NCBI GenBank assembly: GCA_963729625.1 | Contig: CAVSOU010000007.1 | Span: 64,001-128,000, forward strand | Source: an uncultured bacterium | GTDB taxonomy: Bacteria > Chloroflexota > UBA5177 > JANWHV01 | Direction: 5' to 3' | Length of the DNA stretch: 64,000 bases | Shown here: piece by piece, positions 10,165-45,360 of the stretch | Layout of the letters: each line of letters opens with the position of its first letter | Numbering within the stretch: the first letter of the stretch is position 1 | Notes under the pieces: generated by a model | The model's input: the letters and a program-made list of their open reading frames with translations, nothing else | Database searches by the model: none | What the model was told of the DNA's origin: nothing | Program-made: the position numbers and the translations under genes

Positions 10165-11217
10165 ATGCGGATGGTCGGTCTGTCGTGGCGGCCTGGCTCC
10201 ATCAAATCCCTGCTCAACCGCGACGGCGGCGCCGGCCGGTCAATGTGGCGGGCGTTGCGATGGCTGGCAGTTATCGCATCAATCGGCATGTGTCTGGTGC
10301 TGCAGCAGGGCACCCTCGTCACGAATTCAGGCTCCGCCGCGGGCTGCGGAAACACCTGGCCGCTATGCCATGGCAAGATTCTGCCGGAGTTCAGTGGTGT
10401 GGGTGGAGCGGCGACCGCGATTGAGTTCAGTCATCGCGTTGCCGTTCCCGTTGAGAGCACGCTGGTAATCGCGCTCGCCGCCGGCATGCTTTGGTTCTGG
10501 CGAGGCCGGCGTGAGGCGATGGTCCTGGCTCCAGCGATGATATTCTTCCTGTTCCTTCAGGCCGTGCTTGGCGCAATGGCCGTCGCCTGGCCGACCTCGG
10601 CCGAAGTCCTGGCCGCGCACTTCGGCATATCGCTCCTGGCGTTTGCGAGCATCGTGCTGTCCGCTGCGTTCGTCTGGGAAGCAGGCGGGGCCGAAGCGCT
10701 CCGAGATCGAACGCTCTCCTTTCGAATTCGCTGGGCCATCCGGGGTACCCTTGTCTACACGTACGTCGTCGTCTATCTCGGCGCCTATGTCCGGCACGTT
10801 GGAGCGAGCCTCTCATGTCTGGATTGGCCACTCTGCAACGGACGGGTGATACCGAGGTTTGTCGGAGGCGTGGCAACACAGTTTACGCATCGCGTTGGCG
10901 CGGGACTCCTTGTGCTCTCGATCGCGGGCTTGTTTGCCGCTATCTGGACCATCAGGGACCAGCGACCCGACCTCTTCCGAGCGAGTGCAGCGTGCGTCGT
11001 GCTGGTTTGTCTGCAAGCTCTGAGCGGCGCCTTGGTCGTGGAAACCCGCATCTCGGTTATAAGCACGCTGGTCCACGCCTTCTTTGTCAGCCTGCTCTTT
11101 GTCGTCGAAGCGTATATGTGGCTGCACACCGTCGAGCGTCCAGCCGGCGCGTTCGAACAGGCGTCCGGAACCGCCCGCCTGGCTTCTCGCCGGTTACCGC
11201 GGCCGGTTCGTGCATAG
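10165..11217 (+). CDS. ctaA: Heme A synthase (COX15/CtaA family)
   Basis: GCGNTWPLCHG and SCLDWPLCNG cysteine pairs; conserved His in EFSHR, AHFG, QFTHR and VHA; multiple TM helices; AAGGAGG RBS. Confidence 0.88.
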   Translation: MRMVGLSWRPGSIKSLLNRDGGAGRSMWRALRWLAVIASIGMCLVLQQGTLVTNSGSAAGCGNTWPLCHGKILPEFSGVGGAATAIEFSHRVAVPVESTLVIALAAGMLWFWRGRREAMVLAPAMIFFLFLQAVLGAMAVAWPTSAEVLAAHFGISLLAFASIVLSAAFVWEAGGAEALRDRTLSFRIRWAIRGTLVYTYVVVYLGAYVRHVGASLSCLDWPLCNGRVIPRFVGGVATQFTHRVGAGLLVLSIAGLFAAIWTIRDQRPDLFRASAACVVLVCLQALSGALVVETRISVISTLVHAFFVSLLFVVEAYMWLHTVERPAGAFEQASGTARLASRRLPRPVRA

Positions 11218-39659: not shown

Positions 39660-40970
39660 ATGAGCACCCACGGCCGAAGGGGTAGCGCTCCGCGCCGCGC
39701 AGAACACGCCGGCCGCGCGCCACAGGAGAGATCGGAATCGCCCTTGCTGACGCAGCATCTCTTGCTTGAGCTTGCCGTCATTCTGGTCGTGGTGCAGGTC
39801 TGCGGCTATTTGTGCGGACTGATCGGGCAGCCATGGGTGATCGGCGAGGTGATCGCGGGCATTGTTCTCGGCCCGAGCGTGTTCGGAGCCCTGTGTTCCA
39901 GCCTCAGCGCACAGGTGTTTCCTCGTGATGTTTTGCCAACGTTGCAATCGCTAGGCGACCTGGGTCTGGTGCTCTACATGTTCACGGTCGGCGTGAGTTT
40001 GGATAGAGATCATCTCCTTCGTCAGAGCCGGCGAGCAGCCGTGCTATCCGCGTGCAGTATCGGGATGCCGATGGCCGTTGGCGCGACGCTAGCCTTCGTG
40101 CTCTACGCGCGGGCTGGTTACGCAGGCCCACATGCCACCAACCGGGGAACCTTCATGCTGCTGGTGGGTACGGCAATGGCGATAACCGCCTTCCCGGTCC
40201 TGACGCGCATCCTGGTCGATAGAGGGATGACGGGCTCCAGGATCGGCATGCTGGCGCTGACATGCGCCGCTGCCGGAGACGTTCTGGCCTGGTGTCTGCT
40301 GGCGTTGGTCGTCGCACTGGCGAACTCCGTGGGCGTCCCCACGGCAGGCATGCAAGTCCTGGAAACGCTCGTCTTCCTTGGAGTACTGGTTGTCGCCGTT
40401 CGCCCCTTGGGGGCATGGGCAGTACAGCAATTGTCCTCCCCGCGTCTGCAGCTGGTGCTGATCGTCACCTTGCTCTGGCTGGCGGCGGAGACCACCTCGG
40501 TTATCGGGATACACCCGGTCTTCGGCGCCTTCCTGATGGGCGTGGTGACGCCACGGTCGACGGCGATAACCGAATTCGCCCGGAACATCGACTCCGTCAA
40601 CTCGGTCATCTTCCTGCCCTTGTTCTTCATCTTCAGTGGGTTGCAGACAAGTATCGGGCTGATCGATTCACCGGAGTTGTGGATAGTCTGCTTGACGGTA
40701 CTCTGTGCAGCGGTGGCGGGCAAATTGCTGTGCTGTGCTCTGGCTATGCGCGCAACCGGCGCGAATTGGCGAGACTCTATGACGCTTGGCGTGCTGATGA
40801 ACACACGCGGCCTGGTCGAGCTGATCGTGCTGAACATCGGCTTGGCCGACGGCATTATCTCGCCGCGTTTCTTCAGCATGTTGGTGATCATGGCTCTGGG
40901 CACGACCATGATGACGTCGCCACTCTTGGATCTCCTTGGACACAGGGCCGTGAGCGAGCGGGCAGCGTGA
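39660..40970 (+). CDS. Cation:proton antiporter (CPA2)
   Basis: QPWVIGEVIAGIVLGPS, ITAFPVLTRIL, FLPLFF and LMNTRGLVELI. Confidence 0.93.
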   Translation: MSTHGRRGSAPRRAEHAGRAPQERSESPLLTQHLLLELAVILVVVQVCGYLCGLIGQPWVIGEVIAGIVLGPSVFGALCSSLSAQVFPRDVLPTLQSLGDLGLVLYMFTVGVSLDRDHLLRQSRRAAVLSACSIGMPMAVGATLAFVLYARAGYAGPHATNRGTFMLLVGTAMAITAFPVLTRILVDRGMTGSRIGMLALTCAAAGDVLAWCLLALVVALANSVGVPTAGMQVLETLVFLGVLVVAVRPLGAWAVQQLSSPRLQLVLIVTLLWLAAETTSVIGIHPVFGAFLMGVVTPRSTAITEFARNIDSVNSVIFLPLFFIFSGLQTSIGLIDSPELWIVCLTVLCAAVAGKLLCCALAMRATGANWRDSMTLGVLMNTRGLVELIVLNIGLADGIISPRFFSMLVIMALGTTMMTSPLLDLLGHRAVSERAA

Positions 40971-41264
40971 TGGTCACCCGCACCCGCGAAGGGATCGCCG
41001 GCGATGGCTCGAGCGCTGCAAGCTCGATACCTCGCGGTAGTCACTTCCTTTCTGCGCTCGCGGGCGTTGGTCGGGCCGTGGCGAAGCGACCAGTCGCTCG
41101 CGACAAGCCAACTCGGGACACCGCCTCTGGGATCGCCCGAATTCGTGCGACCTCGATGCTTGCCCGCGACACGTGCCAACGCAGAGCAGGCTGCATGGGA
41201 CGCGTGGTCGGAGCGTCAACGATTTACTACGGCGGGCGTTACACCAAACGGCCAAGAATGGTTC

Positions 41265-41293
41265 TGTAACCTCGTCCGTAGTGAACTCTGTTG
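41265..41293 (+). promoter_or_regulatory. Candidate ECF sigma-dependent promoter
   Basis: TGTAAC-N17-CTGTTG about 60 nt upstream of the cupredoxin ATG; resembles the AAC/(C)GT ECF consensus. Confidence 0.45.
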
Positions 41294-41353
41294 CCGCCGA
41301 TGTGACTTCGCCGGCAGGAAGGTAACAGTTAGCAATTGAGGAGGTTCGCCTGC

Positions 41354-42169
41354 ATGTCTCGAATACTTGGCTTGATTACCACCGTGGCAACTCTGGGCGC
41401 TCTCGCGATCAGCGTCGCGGCCTACCAGGGAGCCCTGGCTGCCACGCCGTCGGCCACCGCGCACGCTGCTGCTAGCGTTGCCATACAGGGCTTCGCCTTT
41501 GACCCGGTGACGTTGAAAGTGCCAGTGGGCACGACGGTAACCTGGACCAACAAGGATAGCGTCGCGCACACGGTCGTCAGCGACACCGGAGCTTGGCCAG
41601 ATTCAAGTCCGATCGACACCAACAAGACATTCTCGTTCACGTTTACCAAGCCAGGGACGTACAACTATCACTGCTCCATCCATCCATCTATGACGGCTGC
41701 GATCGTCGTGAGCGCGTCCGGCGTCGCGCCAACGGGCACCGGCCAGCAGCCGTCCGCCACGATGATGGCGATGGGCAAGGCAACCATGAGGTCGCTCAAT
41801 ACGTGGACAGGCTATTATGATGGAAAGGCCTCAACCTACGTCGTGACCGACACGTCGAGCAAGGCGGAAGCCGCTCAAGACCACATCAACTACTCGGCCA
41901 GCCTCGGCAAGACGCTCGCGGACAGCAGCCTGATCTATTTCGCCACGAACGGGACCTTCGCCGGCTATGGCGCTGTGTTCGGCACGGCCCCGGGGGAAAG
42001 CGACTACACGCCGATCTTTCAGAAGGTTTTGGTCACCTGGAAGGATCCCGCTAAAGCCGCAGCCCTGACCTCTGACAATCAGATCAACAGCCTAGCGTCC
42101 AAAGGACTGGTCTCACTGAACAGGACCGGCATCGTGCTCGACGCGCCGTACGTGTTCCCGGCGCACTGA
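41354..42169 (+). CDS. Secreted cupredoxin (amicyanin/plastocyanin-like) fused to an uncharacterised C-terminal domain
   Basis: Signal peptide, WTNKDSVAHTV and YHCSIHPSM type-1 copper site; GAGGAGG RBS. Confidence 0.9.
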   Translation: MSRILGLITTVATLGALAISVAAYQGALAATPSATAHAAASVAIQGFAFDPVTLKVPVGTTVTWTNKDSVAHTVVSDTGAWPDSSPIDTNKTFSFTFTKPGTYNYHCSIHPSMTAAIVVSASGVAPTGTGQQPSATMMAMGKATMRSLNTWTGYYDGKASTYVVTDTSSKAEAAQDHINYSASLGKTLADSSLIYFATNGTFAGYGAVFGTAPGESDYTPIFQKVLVTWKDPAKAAALTSDNQINSLASKGLVSLNRTGIVLDAPYVFPAH

Positions 42170-42323
42170 GCGAGCATCTGCGGTCGTCCTTGAGGGGCGC
42201 CGACGCCGGCGCCCTTCGCAGGCCGTCACATGCCGGCAGCACCACGGGACGGCCGGTTACTCCGGCCCACTGGGTGTACGGGATACGTCGACGAATTCTG
42301 GCACGACACTTTCGGAGGGGTCC

Positions 42324-42860
42324 ATGGGGTGGGAGGCGCCGGAACAGCAGCGCGTATCGCTGGATGGCGATGCCTTATACCGCGCGAACGTTCGGCCAGT
42401 CTATGGGTTCGTATACAGTAAGGTCGGAAACCGCGAGGCCGCGGAGGACCTCACGAGCGAGGTATTCGTGCGTGCTCTGGCCCACGTCGATCCGGACCGA
42501 GATGAACGCAGCGTCGTCGCCTGGCTGTTCCGGGTGGCACGAAACCTGGTCAATGACTATTGGCGAGCAGGGTACTCTGCACACGTCATCGATATCGACC
42601 AGATGCGCAATCTGCGAAGCCCGACCGTGTCTCCGGACATGGGCCGACAGGCTCAGGCTGCGCGGCGAGCTACCAGACTGCTGGAGATGCTGCCTGACAA
42701 CTATCGAGCAGTATTGCAATATCGACTGCTCGAGGGTCTCAGCGTCGCGGAGACCGCCGAGAAGATGGCAACGTCCCCTGCCAACGTCAAAGTGCTGCAA
42801 CACCGCGCGCTGAAGCGGGCTGCTGAGCTTCGAGAGAGCGATGATTCCAATGGAAGATGA
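42324..42860 (+). CDS. ECF RNA polymerase sigma factor
   Basis: AEDLTSEVF, WLFRVARN, LPDNYRAVL and VKVLQHRAL; GGAGG RBS. Confidence 0.93.
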   Translation: MGWEAPEQQRVSLDGDALYRANVRPVYGFVYSKVGNREAAEDLTSEVFVRALAHVDPDRDERSVVAWLFRVARNLVNDYWRAGYSAHVIDIDQMRNLRSPTVSPDMGRQAQAARRATRLLEMLPDNYRAVLQYRLLEGLSVAETAEKMATSPANVKVLQHRALKRAAELRESDDSNGR

Positions 42861-43611
42861 AGTGGACCGGCTGTCAAGCGTCATCGACGATTTGGTGGCT
42901 GAGCACGATCCCTCCGCTCGCAAAGAACTCTCTGTGCAAGAGGCGGAGCTCGCCGCAACTGCGGCCATGCTGCGCGCGGCGGTCGAGAATCGGCTTGAGC
43001 CGACCGAGGAGTTTGTCGATTCGCTGGCGCGGCGGTTAGCGTCCGGCGAGGAGAACGCGCTCGCGCGGGGGGAATCTCGTGGGCGGACCGGCATCTCCCG
43101 GAGGTCGGCGCTCCGGCGCGTGGCAGCAGCCGTGGCCGGCCTTGCCGCGGGCGGCGTCGGCATTGGCGCCCTCTATGAGAAGGGGAAATCCGACGGTGGC
43201 CACGAGGAAGTAGCTAGCGCGCTCACGGCCCCGATGGTGCCGCAGGACCGCGGAACCTGGCAGACTGTCGGTTACACGATCTCGAGTGTTCCTGCCGGAT
43301 CCGCGGTGCGGTTCAGAGCGGGCGCTCTGGAAGGATTTGTGGTCAACCCAGGTCAAGGCGGGCCGCCCTATGCCCTATCGGCGGTGTGCACGCATATGGG
43401 TTGTATGCTCAGTTGGTTGAAAGATGCGGGCACGTTCCTCTGTCCATGCCATGGCGCGCAGTACGATGGCAATGGGGCGGTACTCTCCGGCATCGCTCGC
43501 CACCCCTTGCCGCGACTGCAGATCAACGTAGATGACGGTGGCGAAATATACGTCTGGACCGTGGGGGAGCTCCCCGCGAACACTACGATCGCCCCATATA
43601 GCCACGCGTAA
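42850..43611 (+). CDS. Putative anti-sigma factor with TM helix and Rieske [2Fe-2S] domain
   Basis: Overlaps the sigma stop; helical N-terminus, SRRSAL plus hydrophobic helix, CTHMGC and CPCHG boxes. Confidence 0.82.
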   Translation: MEDEVDRLSSVIDDLVAEHDPSARKELSVQEAELAATAAMLRAAVENRLEPTEEFVDSLARRLASGEENALARGESRGRTGISRRSALRRVAAAVAGLAAGGVGIGALYEKGKSDGGHEEVASALTAPMVPQDRGTWQTVGYTISSVPAGSAVRFRAGALEGFVVNPGQGGPPYALSAVCTHMGCMLSWLKDAGTFLCPCHGAQYDGNGAVLSGIARHPLPRLQINVDDGGEIYVWTVGELPANTTIAPYSHA

Positions 43612-43800
43612 TCGCCGCGATCTGCAGGATGGGACGGCCCGGTCCACCGGCCGGCCGGCCGGATCCGCCTCATCGTGCTATTGAGCGGGACCCGCTGGGC
43701 GACGACAATAGTGTCTCGGCGCCGATTGCCGGCGACCACCGCCGCGCTGGAGCAGTCGATGCGCGGTATTCTCCGCCTGGCCATGGCAAGGGGGATGTAG

Positions 43801-45360
43801 ATGCCCAGACGCATGGCTGCCATCACGTTCGTCCTGCTCGCACTCTCAGCCGTGCCATTCAACCAACACGCGATTCCAACGGCCGATGCGGGCGCTGCAA
43901 CGGTGCTCCCGGACGCTCCGAACTGCCCTGTCTTTCCGGAGAACAACGTCTGGAACGCAGACATCTCCCGACTGCCTGTCGCCGCGAACTCCGCGGCAAT
44001 GATCCAGTCCATCGGCCCCGCCACCGGATTGCACCCCGACTTCGGCTCCTACCTGGGCTACGGCATCCCATACAACGTTGTGAGCGAAAACCAGGTCAAG
44101 GTGCCGGTGACCTTCGACTACGCGAGCGAATCGGATCCCGGACCATACCCGATTCCCGCTGATCCAAAGGTCGAAGGGGGCGGCGACCGCCACATCCTGA
44201 TCGTCGACAAGGACCGTTGCGTGCTCTATGAACTGTACGACGCACGACAGAATGGCGGCGCGTGGTCGGCGGGGTCCGGGGCCATCTGGAAGCTGCGATC
44301 GAACGCCCTTAGGCCCGATAGCTGGACAAGCGCCGACGCGGCTGGATTGCCTATCCTGCCGGGACTCGTCCGCTACGACGAGATCGCCGCCGGGTCAATC
44401 AACCACGCGCTCCGCTTCACGGCTGCCCACACCGCCAAGATGCACATCTACCCGGCACGGCACGACGCCGGAGTAAACAGCCCAGGCTATCCGCCGATGG
44501 GCCTGCGCGTGCGGCTCAAAGCATCGGTGGACATCGGCCACTTCAGTCCACGCGTGCAGGTGTTGCTCAGCGCGCTGAAGAAGTACGGCATGATCCTGGC
44601 CGACAACGGATCGAACTGGTACATCTCCGGCACATCCGACCCCCGCTTTAACGACGACGAGTTCCACACCCTCAACCAGATCACCGGCGCCGACTTCGAG
44701 GTTGTGGACACCAGCGGCCTGATCAACGGACCTGACAAGGGCGGGGCCCCGCAGCCCAGCGCGGGCGCAACCGCCGCCGAGCCCACGCCGACAACGACCC
44801 ACCAGCCCTCGGTCGAGCGTGCAACGGCAGCAGTGCAGCACGTCGTCGTTCTGACACCGGTCGCCGATGCCTCGGTGCGAGACGGCGCGTATGCCACCAC
44901 GCACTACGGCGCGGCAGGATCCTTGCTCGCCGTGTGGTCGCCCGCGGCAGGATATCAGCGCCACATCTACGCGCGCTTCAGCCTCCAGAGCGTCGCTGGC
45001 GCCGTCAACACGGCAACTCTGCGCCTGTACGGACAACACCTGGCAATCGGCCCCGGTGCCGACAAGGTGAGCCTGTTCCCGGCAGCCCCCACCGCGTGGA
45101 CGGATGCGGGACCGAGCGGCATCACCTGGGCCACGCGGCCGGGAGCGGGAACGACCCCGCTGTCCACCGCCCAGATTGGCGAAAGGCTCCAGTACTACAC
45201 GTGGAACACGGGCGCGTACGTGACCGCGCAAGGTGCACGCGCGTCACAGGTCAGCTTCATGCTCGCCGTGCAGCCACCGCGCAGCTCGAATGGCATAGAC
45301 GTCTTCAACTCCCGAGAGGACGGCACGAATCCGCCGCAGTTGGTCTTGGTCCTGCAGTAG
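43801..45360 (+). CDS. Secreted protein: uncharacterised N-terminal domain, Pro/Thr linker, DNRLRE/CBM96-like C-terminal domain
   Basis: Signal peptide; GDRH..IVD and DAAGLPILPGLVRYDE core; C-terminal PVADASV..ATLRLY..ITW..RP..SRE..PQL. Confidence 0.72.
   Translation: MPRRMAAITFVLLALSAVPFNQHAIPTADAGAATVLPDAPNCPVFPENNVWNADISRLPVAANSAAMIQSIGPATGLHPDFGSYLGYGIPYNVVSENQVKVPVTFDYASESDPGPYPIPADPKVEGGGDRHILIVDKDRCVLYELYDARQNGGAWSAGSGAIWKLRSNALRPDSWTSADAAGLPILPGLVRYDEIAAGSINHALRFTAAHTAKMHIYPARHDAGVNSPGYPPMGLRVRLKASVDIGHFSPRVQVLLSALKKYGMILADNGSNWYISGTSDPRFNDDEFHTLNQITGADFEVVDTSGLINGPDKGGAPQPSAGATAAEPTPTTTHQPSVERATAAVQHVVVLTPVADASVRDGAYATTHYGAAGSLLAVWSPAAGYQRHIYARFSLQSVAGAVNTATLRLYGQHLAIGPGADKVSLFPAAPTAWTDAGPSGITWATRPGAGTTPLSTAQIGERLQYYTWNTGAYVTAQGARASQVSFMLAVQPPRSSNGIDVFNSREDGTNPPQLVLVLQ

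Follow-up and report, generated by a model that had tools for sequence, protein, structure and literature searches.

A probable sigma/anti-sigma unit with an exported Rieske iron-sulfur domain beside a copper protein gene in an uncultured Chloroflexota bacterium

RESULTS

On a contig of an uncultured bacterium of the phylum Chloroflexota (GenBank assembly GCA_963729625.1, contig CAVSOU010000007.1), we analyzed a stretch of 64,000 nucleotides (positions 64,001 to 128,000 of the forward strand; here called the window and numbered from its first letter). It carries three consecutive genes on the plus strand: a gene for a secreted type-1 copper protein composed of a cupredoxin domain and a C-terminal DUF7482 domain (41354..42169), a gene for a 178-amino-acid extracytoplasmic function (ECF) sigma factor (42324..42860), and an overlapping gene for a 256-amino-acid protein with a Rieske iron-sulfur domain, a putative anti-sigma factor (42841..43611). 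A pattern search placed a promoter-like motif, GTAACC-N5-CGTA (GTAACCTCGTCCGTA; 41266..41280, plus strand), 88 nt 5' of the ATG at 41354, and a G+C hairpin of 12 bp without a U-run (42191..42218, plus strand; fold z score of the region, -2.3) lies between the copper protein gene and the sigma gene, soon after the stop codon of the former. Together, these genes probably form a unit in which a blue-copper protein is secreted and an alternative sigma factor is held by a membrane protein that exposes a Rieske sensor outside the cell. The original prediction, made from the sequence alone, had listed these components and had mentioned similar clusters in Actinobacteria, which correspond to the ECF group ECF127; its further proposal, that release of the sigma factor is set by electrons passing between the Rieske domain and the cupredoxin, came out of our analysis weakened.

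The sigma factor and the Rieske protein

The assignment of the sigma gene to the ECF class (group 4) held up. Its product contains only the regions Sigma70_r2 (PF04542) and r4 (PF08281), and it scored 76.1 bits against the NCBIfam sigma70-ECF superfamily model TIGR02937 (cutoff, 42.9). The more specific NCBIfam models that it matched, the BldN family (103.3 bits; cutoff, 206) and the SigM family, all remained below threshold.

The Rieske gene overlaps the sigma gene by 20 nt, or by 11 nt if translation begins at the alternative ATG at 42850, where most homologues start. Pfam located the Rieske domain at residues 147 to 223, within a segment (43243..43575) that Pfam, NCBIfam, and Foldseek agree is a bc-type Rieske [2Fe-2S] domain and that is predicted to be extracytoplasmic. 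As in bc-type proteins, it has a box 1, CTHMGC (43387-43404), and a box 2, CPCH (43441-43452), a pattern that, by analogy with bc1 structures, holds the four cluster ligands and the disulfide pair. An AlphaFold2 (AF2) model built with 106 homologues reached a mean predicted local distance difference test (pLDDT) score of 81.9. In this model, N-terminal helices at residues 4 to 19, 25 to 29, 32 to 46, and 56 to 72 (pLDDT of about 70 to 82) are followed by a linker of low confidence, a hydrophobic helix that begins at residue 87, a further helix at 108 to 125, and the Rieske beta-domain with a pLDDT of >90. The gene overlap, the AF2 helices, and the Pfam match thus bear out the earlier description of an overlapping Rieske gene with a helical N terminus of ∼75 amino acids.

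Could the protein simply be a subunit of a respiratory complex? Foldseek searches with the Rieske domain returned a Chlorobaculum structure (8hn2, 36% identity) and Synechocystis PetC3 (5cxm), with further matches to small subunits of arsenite oxidase (AioB, 1g8j) and to b6f Rieske subunits (7qrm). All NCBIfam matches of the protein were below the family cutoffs, those to the PetC and QcrA models far below. Cytochrome b families were absent from the Pfam matches of open reading frames (ORFs) across the 64-kb window (47 further ORFs plus the six around the locus, E ≤ 1e-5), in agreement with the original prediction on this point. With no cytochrome b in the window and low PetC and QcrA scores, the protein does not qualify as a bc1/b6f subunit.

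How widespread is the pairing of the two genes? Of 8000 scored candidates, 1090 were homologues of the Rieske protein at E ≤ 1e-3, and 81 of the 120 listed had E ≤ 1e-40; a survey of species-representative genomes yielded 80 loci. An ECF sigma gene lies directly upstream on the same strand in 64 of them. The 16 loci that lack the pair comprise 2 cut at contig ends (L041 and L048) and 14 with ordinary Rieske proteins that match in the Rieske domain only (9 from Poribacteria, 3 from Acidimicrobiaceae, and 1 each from Oryzomonas and a cyanobacterium). With ORFs called from the first start, a sigma/Rieske overlap of 4 nt was found in 27 of the 64 loci. Judged from these comparisons, the sigma and Rieske genes are a strongly conserved pair that is often translationally coupled.

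By record title, 46 of the 64 loci are from Chloroflexota (15 of them from Ktedonobacteria and 2 from Limnocylindria) and 13 are from Dormibacterota; the other 5 include one labeled Actinomycetes. Dictyobacter vulcani (L059) and Thermogemmatispora tikiterensis (L073) are among the cultured carriers. The sigma orthologues share 35 to 69% identity over 60 loci, and the start region of the sigma gene, GGAGGnGTCCATG, is kept in the closest locus, L001, whose sequence begins 152 nt 5' of its sigma gene and is therefore uninformative on a preceding cupredoxin. In each of two metagenome-assembled genomes, two sigma-Rieske loci were present on different contigs (L018/L034 and L023/L042), and the pair can thus occur as paralogues within one genome.

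The topology of the Rieske protein is also conserved. The residues ahead of its hydrophobic stretch read I-S-R-R-S-A-L-R-R, and a twin-arginine motif (S86-R87-R88) is followed by a mildly hydrophobic segment (residues 90 to 112; 43096..43176 together with the motif). R87 is invariant and S86 and R88 are at least 90% conserved in the 106-sequence alignment, and R87 and R88 are both invariant in an alignment of 22 sequences. In 64 of 65 sigma-linked Rieske proteins the 19-mer of highest hydrophobicity has an RR pair ≤20 residues ahead of it, and both cluster boxes, including the disulfide cysteines (C-x-H-x-x-C and C-x-C-H), are retained in all 65. The twin-arginine translocation (Tat) target model TIGR02811 was weakly matched by 16 of the 106 family members. 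The original prediction had assigned one transmembrane helix here. A hydrophobic helix is present, and because S86-R87-R88 precedes it, the helix reads better as an uncleaved Tat signal-anchor, which would place the Rieske domain outside and ∼85 residues in the cytoplasm.

Residues 1 to 75 (42841..43065) show a conserved pattern in the alignment and, with the AF2 helices, constitute a predicted cytoplasmic helical domain (N-domain) that is our candidate sigma-binding module. The NCBIfam model NF052375, named "antisigma," was matched by 48 of the 106 family members (best E value, 1.1e-6, below the curated cutoff); the window protein itself had an E value of 4.4e-5 and 23.6 bits against a cutoff of 100. 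Because the Rieske gene is at +1 and frequently overlaps the sigma gene, because the protein has a conserved cytoplasmic helical domain and single-pass topology, and because of the NF052375 matches, we consider it likely that the Rieske protein is an anti-sigma factor that binds the adjacent sigma factor. A published remark that likens the Rieske proteins of ECF127 to the anti-sigma factors of ECF121, made in the description of the former group (PMC7826278), argues in the same direction.

With a profile of only the N-domain, 639 representative clusters matched at E ≤ 1e-3. Among the listed members, 63 have at least 200 amino acids; 52 of these carry a Pfam Rieske domain and 11 do not, and none carries another Pfam sensor domain. 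Most of these 11 look frameshifted or truncated, two keeping box 1 and one keeping box 2. We also observed an N-domain homologue of 219 amino acids, P0371, with a non-Rieske C terminus that has no Pfam match; it may represent the same cytoplasmic module on a different sensor. A sequence search with residues 1 to 85 recovered a single near-identical fragment, P0028. This relative (163 amino acids, 94 to 97% identical) diverges from the window sequence after about residue 147, and it is a frameshifted or truncated copy of a Rieske anti-sigma gene, or else an assembly error. An Atlas search with residues 1 to 115 gave no usable match, and one with the whole protein returned nothing but Rieske clusters of Chloroflexota and Actinomycetota, a result that serves as a lead only.

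A bipartite motif upstream of sigma genes and their neighbors

We searched the 250 nt upstream of the sigma genes (66 regions) for common sequence elements. The most widespread hexamer was GTAACC: the coding strand carries it in 50 of the 66 regions and the other strand in 4 of the 66. The longer form GTAACCC is present in 25 of the 66 regions; the window copy reads GTAACCT and stands before the cupredoxin gene, not the sigma gene. Alignment on the hexamer revealed a second element, giving the pattern GTAACC-N5-7-(C)GTA, and 48 of the 64 loci have this bipartite motif upstream of their sigma gene. In 664 kb it had 71 copies, compared to 9.1 ± 2.6 in 30 mononucleotide shuffles. Additional copies lie directly 5' of cupredoxin genes (L017, L019, L036, L050, and L060) and of Lipoprotein_15 genes (L005, L006, L016, L027, L035, and L038), and the layout of L035 is the same as that of the window, with the Lipoprotein_15 gene first.

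The copy at 41266, which the original prediction had read as an ECF-like promoter, therefore belongs to a strand-specific and family-wide motif that equals the -35 element predicted for ECF127. Within the window, GTAACC-N5-7-GTA has two copies versus 0.22 expected. We rejected the second one (1675-1689) as a chance occurrence, as it is intragenic, in an ORF (1039-2214) without a Pfam family. A scan of 40900-43900 for consensus sigma-70 promoters and terminators found none.

The cupredoxin gene and its counterparts at other loci

The ORF of the copper protein is open from a TTG at 41336 to 42169. Its true start is likely the ATG at 41354, since GAGGAGG (41338-41344) precedes it and the database copy P0121 has 271 amino acids. 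Numbered from the TTG, the product contains the Pfam domains Cupredoxin_1 (PF13473) and Copper-bind (PF00127) at residues 33 to 125, DUF7482 at residues 162 to 273, and the ligands of a type-1 copper site, H78 and C113-x2-H116-x2-M119. Together with a hydrophobic N-terminal signal, the Pfam match and the His/Cys/His/Met pattern substantiate the exported type-1 copper protein that had been proposed. NCBIfam gave sub-threshold amicyanin-like matches, and the amicyanin and plastocyanin equivalog models scored below their cutoffs. Among the 120 listed cupredoxin homologues, 12 (within P0207 to P0233) are fused to Lipoprotein_15 (PF03640) and one, P0223, to DUF420/YozB (CtaM). The 12 fusions suggest that Lipoprotein_15 proteins work with cupredoxins, the function of PF03640 itself being unassigned.

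We then consider the genes around the pair in other genomes. The neighbor scan with Pfam covered 131 proteins: 115 ORFs on the same strand at positions -1, +1, and +2 of the 64 loci and 16 representatives of recurrent clusters. Lipoprotein_15 neighbors were present at 14 loci, YtkA-like proteins (PF13115) at 7, and DUF326, a family of Cys-rich copper storage proteins, at 1. Counting cupredoxins with these three families, 28 of the 64 loci have at least one such neighbor. A weak CMD/AhpD-like ORF of 82 amino acids recurs at 4 loci, and a Mn catalase was found at 1. YtkA/CtaK and CtaM have copper-handling roles according to the account of these proteins in PMC13344008. Overall, the neighbors suggest a theme of extracytoplasmic copper.

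Cupredoxins themselves adjoin the pair at only 6 of the 64 loci (5 identified by Pfam, and L060 by phmmer), where they lie downstream, and DUF7482 adjoins it at none. The conserved trio that the original prediction implied is thus only partly conserved: the sigma-Rieske pair stands, and its adjoining cupredoxin mostly does not. Compared across genomes, what is kept is the pair of sigma and Rieske genes together with a gene for a small secreted protein, in many cases copper linked, under the same motif. Because cupredoxins adjoin so few loci and others carry Lipoprotein_15, YtkA-like, or DUF326 proteins, the window cupredoxin looks like an output of the circuit rather than an obligatory co-sensor. 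Nearer to the window, four cupredoxin-DUF7482 homologues and four Rieske homologues of matching divergence occur on contigs of equal size (5459, 5739, 7981, and 481231 nt), which suggests that the two genes are co-located in the near clade; nine other Rieske homologues (contigs of 18 to 488 kb) have no such counterpart among the 120 of 357 cupredoxin matches listed.

Two other genes of the window were noted. A protein of 519 amino acids with a C-terminal DNRLRE/CBM96 carbohydrate-binding domain is encoded at 43801-45360, 190 nt 3' of the Rieske gene, and the motif search of the window found no family motif in front of it. A COX15/CtaA heme A synthase gene, identified with Pfam, lies at 10165-11214, ∼30 kb from the locus, and indicates that the source organism has a heme-copper oxidase.

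DISCUSSION

Relation to known systems

Group ECF127 was reportedly first defined by Huang et al. in 2015. Its description in the 2021 classification (Casas-Pastor et al. 2021; PMC7826278) gives a membership of 100% Actinobacteria, places "soluble" Rieske proteins, some with a TAT signal, at +1, and states that these have no homology to described anti-sigma factors and are similar to those of ECF121. The same description predicts a -35 element, GTAACCC, with a -10 that is not conserved, names an acyltransferase and a calcineurin-like phosphoesterase as context genes, and suggests the Rieske proteins as regulators, in that the group "might be regulated by" them. In the group descriptions of supplementary file 1 of that paper, which reach at least ECF293, Rieske proteins are mentioned only under ECF127. 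A 2022 review places ECF127 under "unknown mechanism," without experimental data in that entry (PMC8999054), consistent with the original prediction, which knew of no mechanistic characterization. Our search of the full-text literature found no characterized Rieske anti-sigma factor. This type of system is therefore one that has already been catalogued, as ECF127, without mechanistic characterization.

The window system and its relatives resemble ECF127 in having a Rieske gene at +1 (64 of 80 loci), an RR motif (64 of 65 proteins), and a GTAACC(C) motif. They differ from it in their hosts, which are Chloroflexota and Dormibacterota and not exclusively Actinobacteria; in their Rieske proteins, which nearly all have RR and a hydrophobic anchor (64 of 65), whereas those described for ECF127 are "soluble" with some TAT signals; and in their neighbors, which are secreted copper-linked proteins in place of the acyltransferase and phosphoesterase of that description. 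We call the window system ECF127-like and not a member of the group; it has both of the context features by which ECF127 is described, the Rieske gene at +1 and GTAACC(C). New features are that the system occurs widely outside Actinobacteria, that its Tat-anchored topology is near-universal, that sigma and target genes have the bipartite motif in common, and that genes for copper proteins lie in the neighborhood.

Other known proteins share parts of this architecture. Single-pass anti-sigma factors that have a class I anti-sigma domain, such as RsiW and RslA, likewise have an overlapping gene at +1, a cytoplasmic helical N-domain, one membrane segment, and an extracytoplasmic sensor. The window protein, in contrast, matches no anti-sigma domain in sequence or fold and lacks a zinc motif, a Tat signal-anchor serves as its membrane segment, and its sensor would be a metal cluster. 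RsmA of Streptomyces is an Fe-S-containing anti-sigma factor. RshA of Mycobacterium tuberculosis, as noted in the 2021 classification, coordinates a [2Fe-2S] cluster (PMC7826278). With these two proteins the window protein would share an iron-sulfur cluster as the sensing cofactor of an anti-sigma factor; they are soluble and cytoplasmic with the cluster in the sigma-binding domain, whereas the Rieske centre here is in a separate exported domain. Finally, the Rieske subunits of bc1/b6f complexes and arsenite oxidase and the stand-alone PetC3 have the same fold, the CxHxGC...CxCH boxes with the disulfide, and a Tat signal-anchor. The window protein differs from them by its extra cytoplasmic N-domain of ∼85 residues, and we found no partner gene for cytochrome b or a molybdoenzyme in the window.

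A model for the sigma-Rieske pair

On balance, we favor the reading that the locus encodes an ECF sigma/anti-sigma signaling unit of the ECF127 type. In such a unit, the 256-amino-acid protein would be held in the membrane with its N terminus inside, so that the helical domain of ∼75 residues is cytoplasmic, and the Tat signal-anchor would bring the folded, cluster-loaded bc-type Rieske domain to the outer face of the membrane. In the resting state the N-domain would sequester the sigma factor. A change at the exposed cluster, whether its oxidation, its reduction, or its loss after damage by copper or oxidants, would then inactivate the anti-sigma factor and free the sigma factor. As comparison of the loci supports, the freed sigma factor would use the GTAACC-N5-7-GTA promoter, which in the window stands before the cupredoxin-DUF7482 gene, and the cupredoxin, sigma, and anti-sigma genes would be co-transcribed, past the hairpin, as a single autoregulated operon. 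What, then, is the signal? Copper damages exposed Fe-S clusters. Because the outputs of the family are small secreted copper-linked proteins, we rank copper or redox stress in the extracytoplasmic space, sensed through the Rieske cluster, as the most likely signal.

Several observations weigh against this reading. The N-domain has no Pfam match at E ≤ 0.01, and a scan of 58 N-domains found nothing recurrent; its profile matched PDB sequences with a best E value of 0.098, which is the chance level; and Foldseek searches of the PDB with the N-domain alone returned 0 matches, from a poor AF2 model (pLDDT, 64; predicted template modeling score, 0.25). It lacks an HxxxCxxC zinc motif, with no Cys in residues 1 to 85, and so has the features of neither the class I nor the zinc-binding anti-sigma domains, the NF052375 match being sub-threshold. 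The promoter side raises questions of its own. The SigW promoter, for comparison, is TGAAAC-N16-CGTA. In our motif only 5 to 7 nt separate GTAACC from CGTA, which puts CGTA ∼10 bp, or roughly a helical turn, nearer than a canonical ECF -10 would be, and at the canonical -10 distance there is only a weak, clade-specific similarity; the promoter assignment is therefore incomplete. Moreover, the 250 nt upstream of the window sigma gene contain no GTAACC, and the hairpin that separates this gene from the cupredoxin gene is strong. Autoregulation therefore needs read-through of a cupredoxin-sigma-anti-sigma transcript, in which case the hairpin could set the ratio of cupredoxin to sigma/anti-sigma transcript. 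Lastly, 36 of the 64 loci have no copper-linked neighbor among the same-strand ORFs scanned at -1, +1, and +2; these loci have unrelated genes, in some of them DXP synthase or glycosyltransferases, or are cut by a contig end.

A more specific version of the model is that the Tat-exported Rieske centre is the direct sensor of the anti-sigma factor and that copper or oxidants, by attacking or oxidizing its exposed cluster, free the sigma factor, which then drives secreted copper-handling proteins from an atypical GTAACC-N6-CGTA promoter. We offer this version tentatively, as a possibility that is less likely than not.

We weighed this model against three others. The best surviving of these is the original idea that the cupredoxin acts as a co-sensor, exchanging single electrons with the exported Rieske domain and thereby reporting the redox poise of extracytoplasmic carriers, which would set sigma release. 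Both domains are predicted to be outside the membrane, the family motif precedes the window cupredoxin, the Rieske domain resembles small subunits of arsenite oxidase (whose NCBIfam name cites an azurin partner), and the four pairs of equal-sized contigs suggest co-location in the near clade. However, a cupredoxin adjoins few of the loci and DUF7482 none of them, and the sensor is conserved while its neighbors vary, which fits the neighbors as outputs. We consider the co-sensor explanation unlikely; redox coupling between the Rieske domain and the cupredoxin is possible and is not required by the data.

Could the Rieske protein instead be a sigma-dependent electron-transfer component, comparable to the stand-alone PetC3, with the sigma factor controlled in some other way? 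Its best structural matches are indeed respiratory or stand-alone Rieske domains (8hn2 and 5cxm), and no homology of the N-domain to known anti-sigma domains was detected. Nevertheless, an electron-transfer role would not call for a conserved domain of ∼75 residues on the cytoplasmic side of the Tat anchor, the Rieske gene always occupies +1 and in many loci overlaps the sigma gene, the sub-threshold "antisigma" matches extend to nearly half of the family members, and neither cytochrome b nor any other partner enzyme was found in the window. This explanation is decidedly unlikely. A third, in which the signal is internal because Tat proofreading exports only cluster-loaded protein, so that the unit reports Fe-S or iron supply or Tat capacity and an unexported apoprotein fails to hold the sigma factor or is degraded, draws on the joint conservation of the Tat motif and the cluster ligands and on the established export by Tat of folded, cofactor-loaded Rieske proteins, but is very unlikely, as the neighboring output genes indicate copper and not iron and genes for iron uptake or Fe-S assembly do not recur among the scanned neighbors of the pair at the 64 loci.

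Significance

The sigma/anti-sigma reading bears on a group, ECF127, that is among the ECF groups with a proposed regulator, and the window and its relatives extend this architecture to other phyla. In these relatives the Rieske partner is almost always Tat anchored and has a conserved cytoplasmic domain, the shared motif provides a promoter candidate that can be tested, and the neighbors suggest a regulon of secreted copper proteins. Since the carriers include cultured Ktedonobacteria (D. vulcani and T. tikiterensis), the system is experimentally approachable. If the model is true, the Rieske protein would be the first anti-sigma factor with an iron-sulfur centre as its extracytoplasmic sensor and would represent a new means of detecting extracytoplasmic copper or redox stress, a sensing principle that would be widespread in Chloroflexota, Dormibacterota, and, as ECF127, Actinobacteria.

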